Part shown: positions 45,101 to 54,100 of the stretch, one piece after another
Position numbering within the stretch: position 1 is the stretch's first letter
Layout of the letters: the number at the start of each line of letters is the position of its first letter
NCBI GenBank assembly: GCA_903813345.2
Contig: CAIIXF020000001.1
Span: 10,106,001 to 10,170,000 of the forward strand
DNA from: Owenia fusiformis
Lineage: Eukaryota
Length of the DNA: 64,000 bases
Direction of reading: 5' to 3'
Made by a program: the position numbers and the translations under genes
Notes under the pieces: generated by a model
Seen by the model: only the letters and a program-made list of their open reading frames with translations
What the model was told of the DNA's origin: nothing
Database searches by the model: none

Positions 45101-48100
45101 ATAATGTGACAAAAATGTAAAATTAGACTCCGGAAAAAACACTTTAGACTCCAGAAAAGCTATTAGACTCTGGAGCAAGAGGGTTTTAAGACATTAAAAG
45201 CCTAGTTGGAACCCTGCCCAAACATTGGCCCACTCTTCTTATTGCTTACTGAGTTATTTCCCTGGAGAAGACTGAGAACAAAACCAGATGTTTGATGAAT
45301 TTTTCTGATTGTTCTGTAAGATACAAGATACATCTTGTTGAGAATTTATTATGAGGTATAATCAGTGATTTAATATTGCTTAGAGTACATGTATGTATTG
45401 TACAGTATTTGTGTTTTTCATGCATTATCCTATTGCACTTTCAAATTGTTCAACTGATGAAATATCTTGACTGAGGCGTTTCTTTAAATTGTCATTATTT
45501 ATGATGATTACTTACATATGCACTTTCTAATGTTCCCTCTTCCTTCATCCTCTTGAACTTACAGCCAAGTACCAAGATTCCAATTAGCTGTAACAATAAA
45601 TCACAGGTATATAACTGGAGAGCATGTTTTATGTGGTATATCAACATGATAATCCATGACATTTCATTTCTTCTCAGCCCTGAGATGTGTTTCAGGTGAA
45701 ACAGAAAGATGCTATGAGTATCAGAATGATGGTATATGCTTATCTCTTCAGTCAATAGGATAGTTTCTAAAATGCAGAAAAAGCAATGGAATCTAGTGCT
45801 GCCATCTTTTATTCAGCTTTTAATTTGGGCTAGAGTTCCATTCACATGCTAAAATCTTGGAAAAGTGGCTTAATTTCATGATTTATCAAAGAGTCTTAGT
45901 TGAATCTATATAAAACTTGAATGATATACCTCATGGTGACCCTGTTTATGTACATGTTGTGATTAAACATGCAAATGTTGGTTGACATACAAATAATCCA
46001 AGGTTTTAAAGAATTTTAGCATTGCATCTATGGAGATTTGGCCCAAGTTTTTTTTAAATTGTCATGGAAAATTATTCAAAATACATAACTGTGTAAATCA
46101 AAGCTAATATAGGAGAAAACAGTTCACTGAATTCAAAGATGCCATTTAAAAGAAGGTAATGTAAGCCATTGGAAGTCTAATATGTAAATCTCTTAAAATC
46201 TCACGAAAAACGAGATTTAGCAAGATTTCAAAAGCTATATGGAAACTATACTATCACAATAGTCTTTGAATTATTCAAAATTCCTGATATATTGCAGCAT
46301 ACCTACAGAATAGAGCTGTGTTCTCAAAATATCCAAAAACAAGACATTAACATGCAAAATGTCACTGCCTGCCATTTACTTAAGACACTGAACACCAACT
46401 GCCAAATGCCAAACACCAACTTCCAAACACCACTATAACCACGCGGTAGTATCTCTTCGGGACGTATCGAAACCACTCCGTCCCGAAAAACCGTTAATTT
46501 GAATTTAAAACCTACCCCAGTGTTTGAAAATCAAGGATTGTGGGTCTCACACTTCACTGTTTTTCTTCAAACTTGTTCCGTACAAAGCTTCACAGAAATA
46601 CCTTTCAGTCGATTCATTGTTTTCGTGTACAAAGTACCTCGTTTTAGCGGCGTTTTGGTCCCCAGCTGTGAGATAAAGCAAATTTTCATAACTTTCAACT
46701 GTAAGTCAAGTTATCTCGCCAGTCTTTTACCCATTCTCGCCCATAATTTCAGAATGGACTCCCATTACAACCTTCCATCGCTACGTCTTGACTTTTGGGC
46801 ATCAAACGCAGCAGTTTCTAAATCATCCACACATCTCTTCAAATTTGACCAATACGTCCCGTCATCTTCCACTACGCCCCGCCGAGTCTATCACTATACA
46901 CGTAGAGTTGCATTCTAAAACAATTTGTCCATCGATGTGTCCGTTTGTAGGTTGCCATTGTCGATTCTAAATACCAATCGGATTGTGTTTTAAGATTTAC
47001 CCATTCTTGTCCATTTTCAATATACCTATAATAGGGTGGTCCAAAATCGGCGGGGCGTAGTGGAAGGTGACGGGACGTATTAGTCAAATTTTAAGAGATG
47101 TGTGGATGATTTAGAAACCGCTGCGTTTGATGCCCAAAAATCAAAACGTAGCGATGGAAGCTTGTAATGGGAGTCCATTCTGAAATTATGGGCGAGAATG
47201 GGTAAAAGACTGGCGAGATAACTTGACTTACAGTTGAAAGTTATGAAAATTTGCTTTATCTCGCAGCTGGGGACCAAAACGCCGCTAAAACGAGGTACTT
47301 TGTACACGAAAACAATGTATCGACTGAAAGGTATTTCTGTGAAGCTTTGTACGGAACAAGTTTGAAGAAAAACTGTGAAGTGTGAGACTCACAATCCTTG
47401 ATTTTCAAACACTGGGGTAGGTTTTAAATTCAAATTAACGGTTTTTCGGGACGGAGTGGTTTCGATACGTCCCGAAGAGATACTACCGCGTGATAACAAC
47501 TTGTGGTGACACATTACCATTTCAGAGAAATATAATGGTATGCACTAATAACTGACATTTTCAGAATAAGTTATATTTCTTTAGTTTCCAGTTGTACAGA
47601 TTATCAAAAGTTGCAATTGAAGTCCAAAAATCACATTTAGACCATAAACTTGTGAGAAGATTCTAAAATTGTTCTTTTCACAGAAATGTTTGACAAAACA
47701 GTCATATAAAGTATCACTAAAAGCTCCTTTTAAATAACAATGATTATGACAAATCACCTCAGATGGATTGATATTAGATAGCTAAAATGGAATGGAAAGG
47801 TAAATATTTCTATAAATGTGTTAAACATGAGAAAAATAACAATAGAAGTGATCAATTTCAGTCAAAATTCAGTTTTTAAATTGTCTTAGAGAGTGACCAG
47901 ATCAGCTTGACCTAGAAGTTTTAACAAAGGCCATCAATTTCATTCCAAATATGGAAAGTGTAAAAATAGAACTGTCAATCAAATTATACTGTGGAAGAAA
48001 AAGTTGTACATGTTATCTGATCTTGATTTTCTTGGACCCAGACTTGAAGTTTTATAACAATGCTCAAAATTTAATTTGTGAACACTAAAAAACTATTTAA

Positions 48101-51100
48101 TGAATATTCATAAAGGTTAGTGTGACTTATTTATAGAAAATTATCAAAATTCATATTCTATTTACCAAAGTAAAAGAAATTAAAATGTCAGAGTTAATCT
48201 ATCTGGTAATGGCTGGTTTTGGTAAGAATATCTATTCCCATCAATTGAAACAAAGTATATGATTTTTTTTATATTTCTATACAATTTTAAGTCCACACTT
48301 CACATCTATGACAACAGTTCCTATGGTAACACTAATTCTTAATTCCCTGTTTTTTCTTCTTCATAATGAATCACAAACAAAAACACAAGACATAAACGAC
48401 AAAATGCAACCACCTGAAAATGGTTGCAAAAGTATAACAACTGTTACAAAGGTCAACCAAAGGTCATATCTCAAATCTAAAGTCAGATGATTTTGAAAAA
48501 TGGTCAATTTGAAGCAAGTTGCAAAAGGTTACAAAAGAGGAACAATTTTTACAGATGAAGGTCAACCAAACATCAAATCTAAGGTCAGATTTGAACTTCC
48601 AAGAACTTTGGTCAAAATTGGTCAATTTGAAGCAAGTTGAAAAAGACCTCTTCGACTTTTTTTTCTTCAATTTGTTGCCATGGTAACAAATATTGGCAGA
48701 AATGTGTTGGAACTCACAGGATGTTAATATATGTTGACAGTGAAAAATTGAAATCAGTCTTAATAGTACTTGATGTTATTGGAAGTTGTAAGAATTTGTT
48801 ACAGGCACCAACTGCAAGATGCCAACCATCAAATGCCAACCACCAAACACCATTCACAAAACGGTTGAAGACTATAACAATATATCATCACGTGGCATAA
48901 AAACCGTTTGTCTTATTTTTCAGATGTTACAAGTAAAACGATGATATTATATATATATGCCACGTGTAAAAACTAGATTGATTTTCACTTTTTTAAAACA
49001 ACAGGAAAATTGCAACATATGGTAGGCGTTTTTAATTGCGTTGTTCAAAGTAGATTGCATCTTTGGTCCAATAGTATTTCAATTCTTTCCATAGCTGCAA
49101 TAGAAGCAAAGCCAGATCTTGAAGGATGAGTAATTGTTAAAGTTTGAATATCGACAACAATATATTGGATGTATTTTCTATTAATCATGGGAATTTTGAC
49201 CAAAATTTGGAAAATTTCAAAAATAGGGAGATCCAAGAAAAGCAAAACTGTCAAATAATGTTGAACTCTTCGTTGTCAGTCTCCAACCAAATGTGGGACA
49301 AATGAGCCGCGTACAATAAACTCATACATAAGTAATAAACAGTATTATGTTTGATTTGACCTACCAGTGTAAAACTAAAGAAGAGTCCAAAACCTCCAGA
49401 TACTTTTTTGGCATGGAACATAATTGGCTGCATTCTATCCCAGCACTGAGTGGAACAAGGACATCCGGGTAATGATTTCGGTAGTGTGGTTCCGGTACAG
49501 CATACATATGTTTCATTTGCTTTCAAATTCTTACAGCACTCAAGCTAAATTCAGATATTATATATGATCGATTATTTTGCATACTCACCAGTGTAAAGCT
49601 AAAGAATAAACCGGTTCCACCAGCAGCTAGGGTTGCGTAATGCATAGTTTTTCGTAGTCTTTCATAGCAAGTAGTTTTACATGGACAAGGTGGGTCTGCT
49701 GTGAAGGGTGACCCAGTACAACAACTGGCTTTAGATAGTACCTGTTTAACCGTACAGCAAGAAATCTGGAAGGTACCATAACCACCACTAATCACCACAT
49801 ATACGAGGGGTGATTCAAAAGTAATGGACAAAATTTTATAGGCATACTAAATTTCACCCAATCAGTCTAATTTTTTCACAGTGAATAGATCAATCAATTC
49901 TCTATTTTGTGTCGAATTCTCATTTAAATGCATTTGAAATTGTTTCAGCTATGCGTAACCATGGTAACAAGGGTAAGCATGGGTGGAATTGGTTTTTTAA
50001 TGATAATTGAATGTTTTTGTCATTTTTGCTTGATTTCGTTTTAATGACTCAATTACCACACATGATATGTCTAACAAGCATGGTAATGCAATTGTCAAGC
50101 AAGACTCACATGCCCATGTGTTTGCTGTTGAGTTCTAAATTCAGCAACCAATTGTACTATGACATCACAATGATATTTCTAAGACAGGCACTTCAAAAGA
50201 AAAGGAAAGACACAAGAGAATCGTTTGTTACACATGGACAATGCCCCAGCACACAGGTCCAAGCTAGTTCAGGATACTCTTGCAGCATTCATGGACATGC
50301 CTCAACTTCCACATGTTCCATATAGCCCTGATACTGCTCCTTGTGATTTCTATCTTTTTCCCACCCTTAAGATGGGATTAAAGGGACAATCCTTTCAGAC
50401 ATTAGCTGAGCTGGAAATGGCTGTACAAAAACAGCCGAACACCATGGCTGCTGATGGATTTGGACATGAGTTCTCTGCATGGGTGCGCTGACAGAAGAAA
50501 GTAATTGAACTTGGAGGAGAATACATTGAGGATTGAATATAATTCAAATGGATGATCATCAGGAATAATAAGGAATGATATGGATTATTATTGAACTTAC
50601 TGCGATATGCTTTTCATATACATCTTGCATTGCAAAATATATTGCACCAGCAAACTTTTCATTGAAAATCCATTTGTTATTTTGATGAAAATAGCCTTAA
50701 AAATGGATTCCGGGTGTATGCACCATGATCCAAGAGAAGTGCTCTATCTCAAAATGTATTTGCATTTAGTTAATAAAATTTTAACATCTAATAGATAATT
50801 GATTAATCTTTATTTGTACAAAGTTTCATTCAAATCTGGTAAAGGTAAGCGTGCCTATAAAATTTTGTCCATTACTTTTGAACCACCCCAAGCAATAGGT
50901 TAAAACAAATACAACAGAATAAATAAACTATAAATAAATGTGTTCAAATATCCTTGAGTCAAGGAAACTTTGAGCAAAGTGAAATGTTCAAGCGAGAATT
51001 TATGAATGTGACACCAAATCGAAGCCATCTTCCAAATAGATACATGGATCTATTTCTGCTTGCTAGATCAGCTTGGATGCATATATCCCTTTAGCAGTAA

Positions 51101-54100
51101 ATCTATCTTGGCTATCAACTTTTCACCCCCTACTAAAATACATGTAGTCGGTTGTATGTTCAGTGTTCACACAAATTCAAGTGAATAAGGATTAGGAAAC
51201 ACTATTTAGTATATGAACATTTTAGCTCAAAGTTACCAGGACTCTTTGATTGAGACTGTTGCCATGGTAATCAGGCCCATAACCAGGATTTTCCAAGTTT
51301 TTTTTAAAATATTCTAGGGGGGATTCGCTTTTGACAATTTTAGTCCAAAAATGGCCAAAATCCCATTGAACACCCCCCCCCCCCCCATGGCTACAGACCT
51401 GCTGTTACCATGATATTACAAACCACAAGTGCATACTAAAAAGGGGATGAAACTAATGGCAAATTCACATGATTTGGCCAACTTATCTGTTTATCTTTGG
51501 TACCAAATATTTTAAATTGAAGTAATGATAAACCAGACAAGATGTAAATTGTCAATCTGACTATTTGTTTCACCCTGACCCATAGTAATAATTATGACAA
51601 TTATGAACTTATTGTATAAAATGTAAGGGGTAAAGGGGTATGCATCGTTAGAAATTAAATTGAAAAATAAATAATGGTGCATAAAACAATATTGGGATAA
51701 TTAAACAAAGCTTTAATTATAAATATATATGGAGCAATTCAATAAAAAAGAAACTAGAGATAGGAAATAGCTGGCACAAAATCTGAATATAGAATTAGAT
51801 AATTATGGCTAAAAAACTAAACTTTGACAGAAAAATGCATATTGTGTATCTATCACACCAAAGGCTGTGTGGGCTTACCATTCGCCACCTTGTGAATACT
51901 TTGGGGCAGACAGTGGGGCAGGGTTAGATACATGGGGGCAAAACAAATATTTTACAGCAAGATATCCCCCATCCCACCAAATATAAAAATTAATTAATTA
52001 AAAAATTAATTTCTTAAATAAGCCACATGTGGTGAATGGTAAGCCCACACGGCTAATGTGAGATCTACTTTAAAGGGACAGCAATTGAGAGAGTGTATTA
52101 TGACCGTAAAATGTTGGAAGCAAACTTTTTAACAGATATGTCAATGTTTCCCTTGTGATCACTTACTATATACATTGTGTACAGTAAAACCTGTTTATCT
52201 GTTCAACTTGGAAAGTGTTGGACTTAAATAGCGGTTCAGTTTGCATCGGTATTCAGTAACAGGACTTGAAATTGTTTGACTTTCGTGTTTCACTTAACAA
52301 GTTTTACTGTACTAAAAAAGAATTGAGATATCTGGTCACGCTAGGAAGAAATTGACATTTTATCAAAAAGAGACATCCTCTTTTCTGGTTTAAAGCAAAA
52401 CTACTTTTAAAACATTTTCATTCAATGAAGCTGTAACATTCATCTCAATCCTTTGCTGTCTCTAAAAATCTATAAGTTGGAGTTTTGTTTACTTTATTTA
52501 ATTACAATTGTGCCAAACAACTATTGAAAGTTATACCTCGGTCACATTTGATCTATGGCAACAGTACCTACAGCAGCATTAAATATAGGAATAAGCCGTA
52601 CAATGTAGATTTTCTATATCAATTTTGTGACGGCTTCCAAAGAGCAAATGTGACGGAGGCTTTAGAAAGCTTTATCTTTGTTTTATATATTTTTGTTAGA
52701 ATATAATTACACTTGGTATTTAATAGAGTACATAAATATGATAATACACTAGGAGGGATTGCATATAAAGAATATCTACATTACAAGGGAAGATATCAAT
52801 ATTTCATTGAGGTTTAAATCCTATATCTATCCTTACCAGGGAAAAGAGGATTTATCCAATGATCATGACAATATTGAGTGAATTAACATATTTTGCCTTT
52901 CACACTTTTTGACCATGTTAAACAAGGTTATCTATTCTGATCATGGGTTAACTTAATACATATAATTAAATGTAATCGAAGATGAACCTACCGCATCACA
53001 TCCTGGGTGTCCCATACCTGATGGATCATTGACACCCAAAGAGGCATTTTCAAATCCACAACATTCAAAATTAAATTGCACATTGGACTTTGCTTGATTA
53101 GATGCGTGTTGCCAGCCTGTTTCTGCGATCATTTTTATTCCATTGTCACCAACTGCTAGGCATGCACATGACACAATGAACATTATGATGAAAACAAATC
53201 CAAGTAAAAACATATTCTGAACAGAGTTAAGGAGTTCTAAACAATACAAAGTAATAATTATGCATTCCTGGCATGCTGAGTTTACATATAACAGAATTAA
53301 TCTTTAGTCATCCTCTGAACGCAGGGTTCCAGACATCATCCACTAAGTTTCTTCCTTCTTCGAAGAAGGAGGTACGAGTTCTGGAGGCCTGTGTTCGGAG
53401 GATGATCTTGAGGGAAAAGATGATTAAATGGCGAGTAAAAATGATTTATATATTTCTTTTATTGGCAATAATATCAAAACGTGATAGTTTACATAAATCT
53501 ATGCACAATCCAAGACATAAAATCAATCTAAAATTAACTGCACTGTACTATTTGATACATAAAGTTAAATAAATATTTCAGATGAAAATGGTTCCCCTTT
53601 TAGAAATTGTCATCTACCCACCTATTTGATGAATTATAGATTTTCTAGGTTCAACTTAACTGATCCATAAAAAGGCACTGAGAGTGAAGTATTTTGAAAG
53701 TTACGAGCAGTCAACCTGGGAAACTTTGATTGCATGATACCTTAACAGTATCTATTGATAAATAATTCATACAAGGCATTAACATAAAGAATATCACCAC
53801 CTGACATTTGTTACACATGCCAAACGCTGAACGCCAACCGCTGAATGCTGAACACCGTCCACAAAAAGGTTTGAGACTTTAACAATATGTCACTGGCAGA
53901 AAAACTTTAACAATATGTCACCACTTATGTTGCTGACACAAAAAAGTGTGTATTTGTAGAAAGTATTTCAGATTACCAACCTTCAATTCTACAGAATACC
54001 TGACAGGACAGAAGTAAACAGGGGTTCAGAAATTTTCCCAAAATGAACCTGACAGTATCTAAAATACCTGGCAGGCAAAAGGTTAACGAAGTGAAACCAA

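Follow-up and report, generated by a model that had tools for sequence, protein, structure and literature searches.

Tandem exons 4A and 4B in a TSPAN13/31-like tetraspanin gene of Owenia fusiformis: a probable case of mutually exclusive splicing of the variable extracellular head

The variable part of the second extracellular loop (EC2) is the main means by which tetraspanins organise their membrane partners, and the diversity of these proteins is usually ascribed to gene duplication, with 33 genes in human. A stretch of 64,000 nt from the genome of Owenia fusiformis (GCA_903813345.2, contig CAIIXF020000001.1, positions 10,106,001 to 10,170,000; hereafter the window, with positions counted from its first letter) raises the question of whether a single tetraspanin gene may exchange this region by splicing instead. 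On its minus strand, two neighbouring versions of exon 4, here named 4A and 4B, lie between shared exons 3 and 5 of a predicted TSPAN13/31-like gene. The probable explanation is that 4A and 4B are mutually exclusive tandem exons that swap the EC2 head, with the joining of 4A to 4B barred by the short spacer between them.

Exon 4A encodes the peptide ISCCTVKQVLSKASCCTGSPFTADPPCPCKTTCYERLRKTMHYATLAAGGTGLFFSFTL (ISCC...GLFFSFTL), is preceded by ...ccttccag and is followed by GTGAGT, while exon 4B encodes LECCKNLKANETYVCCTGTTLPKSLPGCPCSTQCWDRMQPIMFHAKKVSGGFGLFFSFTL (LECC...GLFFSFTL), is preceded by ...gaatttag and is followed by GTAGGT; the borders of both are canonical AG/GT splice sites, and both lengths are divisible by three. 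An earlier note, made from the letters of the window without database searches, had described two intact phase 0-0 exons of 177 and 180 nt with canonical splice sites and a 44-nt spacer, and this description is confirmed on the minus strand. In a global alignment, 25 of 60 residues are identical between 4A and 4B, with one gap of a single residue and seven of seven cysteines in register, in keeping with the claim that all seven cysteines and the reading frame had been kept in both copies. The last 9 nt (TTTACACTG) are identical in the two exons. Adjacent homologous exons of similar length and the same phase are as expected for a tandem exon duplication, and exon 4 of this gene is duplicated in tandem. 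The pair is not due to chance, because few random 180-nt stretches of the window are free of stop codons (3.5%), an exon-4 profile built from relatives scores 4A and 4B at E-values of 5e-19 or lower (1e-20 and 5e-19), and each exon peptide matches part of a deposited O. fusiformis protein with 100% identity. Every other open reading frame (ORF) of the 64-kb window scored E > 2 against the same profile. Pfam searches with the single 4A and 4B peptides gave no meaningful match, as the peptides are too short.

Four protein models of this gene, P0001 to P0004, have been deposited under four consecutive accessions, and the methods text of the genome paper describes gene models derived from RNA-seq assemblies (StringTie, Trinity, Mikado, PASA) together with curated junctions (PMC9977687). 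The spliced translation of the window exons reproduces P0001 exactly, with exons 1 to 3 corresponding to residues 1-153, and P0002 places 4B between exon 3 and exon 5, the position occupied by 4A in P0001 and P0003. Two proteins result that are identical apart from approximately 60 residues of exposed head, and the proposal of one gene with two isoforms that differ in the distal head of EC2 stands on these models and on the separate contigs of run X1 described below. The sole model containing both exons is P0004, in which the spacer is kept and the protein is shortened, exactly the frameshift product that had been foreseen for spacer retention. The sole 4B model (P0002) also carries the optional cassette exon of the cytoplasmic tail, and the choices of 4B and cassette might be coupled.

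Four runs (X1, X2, X18 and X20, of which X18 and X20 are raw RNA runs) were mapped on 45300-53400, and statements on their joints refer to the 15 of 40 joints that are listed; the types of runs X1 to X17 are guesses, none being recorded as RNA for the 401-nt two-exon stretch (49365-49765). The joints 49765>52992 and 45587>49589, connecting exon 3 to 4A and 4A to exon 5 with CT..AC borders (GT..AG on the minus strand), were present in all four runs, with 3 and 5 reads in X18, 13 and 14 reads in X20, and one contig across them in each of X1 and X2. These positions agree with the junction coordinates given in the earlier note, exon 3 ending at 52992 and its intron starting at 52991. In X1, record 5 (228 nt, depth 14.4) lies on 4A only and record 4 (231 nt, depth 13.8) lies exactly on 4B (49365-49544), both with 0 differences to the window and each with 30 and 21 unmapped letters at its ends. 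A 31-mer bubble between exons 3 and 5 should leave flanks of 30 and 30-9 = 21, because 4A and 4B have their last 9 nt in common, suggesting that in X1 exon 4B is spliced to the neighbours of 4A at an abundance about equal to that of 4A. The depth of X1 is 0 in several intron bins, including 49094-49364 and 50991-51261, and X1 is therefore not genomic DNA. With 4B depth similar to that of 4A in X1 and near zero in X2, X18 and X20, the use of 4B is sample-dependent; across these four runs, isoform choice differs between samples. X2 contains 0.72 of the sampled index words of 49365-49765, more than 4A alone could give, yet holds no 4B contig, a discrepancy that a filter or the popping of low-depth variants may have caused. 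A search with a short Logan-derived peptide spanning 4B and its flanks returned no candidate.

In the proposed mechanism, the donor of exon 3 would be joined to 4A and the donor of 4A then to exon 5, or alternatively the donor of exon 3 would be joined past 4A to 4B and the donor of 4B then to exon 5. Exons 4A and 4B would not be joinable to one another, as the branch point for the 4B acceptor would lie at most 31 nt from the 4A donor within an intron of 44 nt, below the approximately 50 nt needed by the spliceosome. Where both exons remained in one RNA, the spacer would stay, the frame would shift and the protein would end early, as in P0004. The spacer has a strong donor (GTGAGT) and a weak pyrimidine tract; no strict yUnAy branch site occurs in its 44 nt, and relaxed UnAy adenosines are found 17, 24 and 31 nt from the 4A donor (5′ splice site). 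In Hatje et al. 2017, a donor to branch-point distance of <50 bp is the criterion for steric interference, with 57 such human clusters of mutually exclusive exons (MXE) (PMC5740500), and a whole intron of 44 nt places the Owenia spacer within this distance (<~50 nt). A steric block by the short intron would most likely be the best mechanism for the mutual exclusion.

The remainder of the gene is that of a tetraspanin (Table 1). All coding exon lengths are divisible by three, and P0001 matches the Pfam family PF00335 Tetraspanin over residues 10-218 with 50.6 bits against a cut-off of 32.1. Alignment A1 shows no variation at C130, C131, G132 and C151, and each version of exon 4 adds seven cysteines. 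AlphaFold models of the 4A and 4B isoforms (pLDDT 83.0 and 81.3; pTM 0.74 and 0.70, respectively) both contain four transmembrane (TM) helices with a small first extracellular loop (EC1) and a large EC2, and the helices are alike in both, at residues 6-38, 44-70, 73-99 continuing to 115, 118-128 and 186-228/229. All ten of the ten best PDB matches are tetraspanins, namely CD9, Tspan15, CD53, CD81, uroplakins and PRPH2/ROM1, the matches being moderate (best E-value 7e-4, TM-scores 0.30-0.54). Exon 4 corresponds to residues 154-212/213 and supplies residues 186-212 of the continuous helix 186-228; it is predicted from the models to encode the Cys-rich variable EC2 loop, the last EC2 helix and the outer half of TM4, which agrees with the statement that including both exons would duplicate half of TM4.

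Table 1. Exons, spacer and deposited protein models of the Owenia fusiformis tetraspanin gene, with positions in the window.
Feature	Position	Strand	Description
Exon 1, coding part from ATG	57901-57839	-	63 nt
Exon 2	55388-55218	-	171 nt; TM1 end, EC1, TM2
Exon 3	53216-52992	-	225 nt; TM3, EC2 helices A and B, CCG motif, HPGC; common donor for 4A or 4B
Exon 4A	49765-49589	-	177 nt, phase 0-0; used in P0001, P0003, P0004
Spacer intron	49588-49545	-	44 nt, GTGAGT...TTTAG
Exon 4B	49544-49365	-	180 nt, phase 0-0; used in P0002
Exon 5	45587-45516	-	72 nt; inner half of TM4, start of cytoplasmic tail; common acceptor
Optional cassette exon	42093-42049	-	LNPKSETPGDNTNSQ; 45 nt, phase 0-0; cytoplasmic tail
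Last coding exon (e6)	39183-39130	-	PSFKDDVGTGSGYDQFE + stop; from the spliced translation
P0001			253 aa; exon 4A, cassette skipped
P0002			269 aa; exon 4B + cassette; junctions ...HPGCDA/LECC... and ...FSFTL/LIGIL...
P0003			268 aa; exon 4A + cassette
P0004			233 aa; 4A through retained spacer into 4B out of frame; stop after 21 codons

Twenty clusters were looked up, many of them without a name, and the named relatives, which include Sycon, Limulus, Nematostella, Mya and Gordionus, are called tetraspanin-13/31, tetraspanin-31-like, tetraspanin-13-like or TSN31-like by their sources. These names agree with the earlier assignment to the TSPAN13/31 type, and the gene is accordingly named here, by sequence relationship, as the putative TSPAN13/31-like tetraspanin of O. 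fusiformis. Like TSPAN13/31 proteins, the Owenia protein has four TM helices, the CCG motif and the TM4 motif GGxGLFFSFT, which is typical of the family and is present in both 4A and 4B, and it also shares the exon unit, which reads cag/xCC...FSFTE/gt in many genomic loci. It differs in its tail, where RYRNxKDPxxNPxAFL of the family (usually RYRNQKDPxxNPSAFL in the relatives) is absent and KFKRMKEEGTLESAY...GYDQFE stands in its place, and in exon 4, which is duplicated in Owenia but single copy in the relatives examined; the TM4 and tail motifs are derived from the alignment consensus A1/A3 and not from a curated family definition. The ending ...DDxG..Y..F is shared with the Owenia protein only by P0028/P0154 among the aligned relatives. 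The GYDQFE end of the tail, in the last coding exon, contains a Yxx-hydrophobic pattern like that of tyrosine-based sorting signals.

Between 4A and 4B, synonymous sites are near saturation (pS 0.71, dS ~2.1), and the nonsynonymous values are lower (pN 0.41, dN 0.60, with pN 0.17 in the TM4 part). The dN/dS between the two exons, a computation proposed in the earlier note, is ~0.28. These values fit a duplication of some age in which each copy is under purifying selection, and the earlier description of an old duplication under selection may apply. In a tree of exon 4 (116 segments, 56 columns), 69 of 113 inner branches are open and 4A and 4B fall in a polytomy; the two are mutually the nearest rows by path (1.95), and no supported branch joins or separates them. 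A metagenome scan using an alignment of seven closer sequences and the motif GGxGLFFSF yielded 77 loci, comprising 40 cDNA-like loci and 37 treated as genomic-like (L041-L077). Many of the genomic-like loci have the same borders (cag/xCC...FSFTE/gt), and this exon unit is therefore an old one within the family. A weak match in L062 (161-346, E 3.9) was dismissed as a second exon copy, as it lies upstream of exon 3. P0020/P0162 and P0114/P0161, from ENA contigs, are diverged TSPAN13/31-like ORFs that are sisters in the exon-4 tree (SH-aLRT 94). The longest contig recorded for P0161 (in the 90% cluster of P0114) and for P0020 has 7956 bases in each case, and the two may be on one contig. They were ruled out as an exon pair, being paralogs at the level of whole genes, with a TM3 and a CCG motif in each; such a pair would be a whole-gene tandem duplication elsewhere in the TSPAN13/31 family.

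Several observations weigh against mutually exclusive use of two functional exons. The joints of 4B, 52992>49544 and 49365>45587, are absent among the joints listed, such that the junction check proposed in the earlier note found 52992>49765 and 49589>45587 in all four runs but did not show the 4B pair among those listed; the 4B junctions in reads would follow from the bubble, and otherwise from model P0002. The 4A-4B joint (49589>49544) and the skip joint (52992>45587) are likewise not among the 15 of 40 joints listed. X2 has one unbranched contig of 975 nt running through exon 5, 4A and exon 3, with nothing on 4B, and the depth of the 4B bin is ~0 in X18 and ~1x in X20, with no 4B joint among those listed. 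Double inclusion of 4A and 4B with the spacer spliced out would stay in frame, and nonsense-mediated decay (NMD) would therefore not police it. The variable loop is modelled at low confidence (pLDDT blocks of 70/66 in the 4A isoform and 56/54 in the 4B isoform), and no structural statement on the two heads is therefore made; the proposed modelling of both EC2 variants gave the same helices in each, but variable loops of low confidence. Finally, a second exon-4 match (E < 1) was found in 0 of the 37 genomic-like loci, of which 23 extend for 300 nt or more on each side, several are near-duplicates and a few are cDNA-like; the exon duplication is therefore not a family-wide trait, a result that does not bear on close relatives of Owenia.

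Such observations could be read to mean that 4B is a relic or is used at a low level, its occasional inclusion being splicing noise, and that the 4A isoform alone is functional, as X2 and X18 have next to no 4B and X20 has little, second copies are lacking in the 37 related loci and pLDDT is lower in the B loop. This reading is nevertheless quite improbable, given that 4B retains an intact frame of 180 nt where 3.5% of random stretches are open, keeps the seven cysteines, the TM4 start and canonical splice sites, differs from 4A with near-saturated synonymous sites at a dN/dS of ~0.28, matches the depth of 4A in X1 (13.8 vs 14.4) and is part of a full-length transcript-based model, P0002. The suggestion that the pair is an artefact, either an assembly duplication or alleles or paralogs collapsed side by side, has nothing in its favour and its probability is close to nil: only 25 of 60 residues are common to 4A and 4B and their lengths differ, both are transcribed with 0 differences to the window (X1 records 5 and 4), and index words of the 401-nt stretch are contained in 17 runs from five studies. 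It is refuted for practical purposes by this divergence, run spread and transcription.

A different objection accepts that the exons are exclusive and ascribes their exclusion to long-range RNA structures, exon-specific repressors or the decay of double-inclusion RNAs. Mechanisms of this kind are known in other MXE clusters, according to two sources (PMC6071210, PMC7797038), and the spacer is without a strict yUnAy site, such that the branch point of 4B may be elsewhere. Against this, any branch point that follows the 4A donor can be no more than 44 nt from it, and a 466-nt stretch of local RNA gives no better fold than shuffled sequences (z +0.70, with 74 of 100 shuffles folding as well). Spliced double inclusion is in frame and NMD alone cannot enforce exclusion, while spacer retention gives a stop. 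Control by such means is unlikely, and mutually exclusive use of 4A and 4B under the steric block of the short spacer is preferred.

Exons 2/3 of alpha-tropomyosin, the subject of Smith and Nadal-Ginard 1989, are reportedly the classic example of exclusion through a short distance between donor and branch point. The Owenia pair is like these exons and the 57 human MXE clusters in that adjacent homologous exons are present, one is always chosen and joining would be blocked by a close branch point. In alpha-tropomyosin, however, a distant branch point lies in a longer intron, whereas in Owenia the whole intron measures 44 nt, and the human and tropomyosin cases belong to other gene families and another phylum. 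Exons 4a/4b of OGDH, as portrayed in PMC7969005, are similarly duplicated exons of the same phase and length that swap one structural module. The module in Owenia differs, being the variable loop of the tetraspanin EC2 together with half of TM4.

For the possible function of this module, CD151 offers a parallel. Its QRD site is said to be positioned after the CCG motif, and the segment swapped in Owenia is likewise the portion of EC2 that follows this motif. According to PMC2173251, QRD194-196 of CD151 is a short EC2 site required for strong integrin association. By analogy with other tetraspanins, the 4A and 4B heads would bind different partners.

The introns on either side of the exon pair contain repeats. 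A Tc1/mariner-like remnant at 49807-50889 has at its two ends inverted repeats of 52 nt (49807-49858 and 50838-50889) that are 87% complementary, contains an ORF (50183-50491) with a sub-threshold DDE_3 match (20 bits vs a cut-off of 28.6) and ends 42 nt upstream of the 4A acceptor. The remnant is covered by reads from other copies, and the X18 joint 49820>50854 points to shorter copies of it elsewhere. The intron between 4B and exon 5 holds an inverted repeat at 46440-47492 with arms of 446 nt, 98% complementary and separated by 161 nt, which, from its heavy cover by RNA-derived contigs, is probably of a foldback-type repeat family. Two further intronic repeats, 48460-48810 and 45650-45730, show very high read depth together with numerous back-joints and loose ends, and probably represent copies of repeats expressed from other places in the genome, outside the mRNA of this gene.

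No paper on mutually exclusive exons in a tetraspanin was found in the literature, although the supplementary lists of MXE surveys may hold one, and TSPAN or tetraspanin has 0 mentions in the main text of PMC5740500. The suggestion that the arrangement is new for TSPAN13/31-type genes goes too far in one respect, as both isoforms are present in public annotation; the Owenia instance appears to be undescribed, its isoforms already being public as unnamed gene models. It is conceivable, if somewhat doubtful, that this is the first described tetraspanin in which mutually exclusive splicing swaps the partner-binding head of EC2, with two anciently diverged and selected heads, use that depends on stage or tissue (from ~1:1 to near zero) and an unspliceable spacer of 44 nt. 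The practical weight of the finding is limited, as it concerns one gene in one species, with isoforms that are already public and a splicing device that is textbook knowledge. The 44-nt spacer is a clean candidate for probing the minimum spliceable intron in a spiralian. If true, the arrangement would be a naturally occurring domain-swap test of the post-CCG region as a determinant of tetraspanin specificity, and the two natural chimeras on one scaffold would aid in identifying partners for the TSPAN13/31 group, which is poorly understood. A splicing swap of the variable part of EC2 would then constitute a second route to tetraspanin diversity beside gene duplication.

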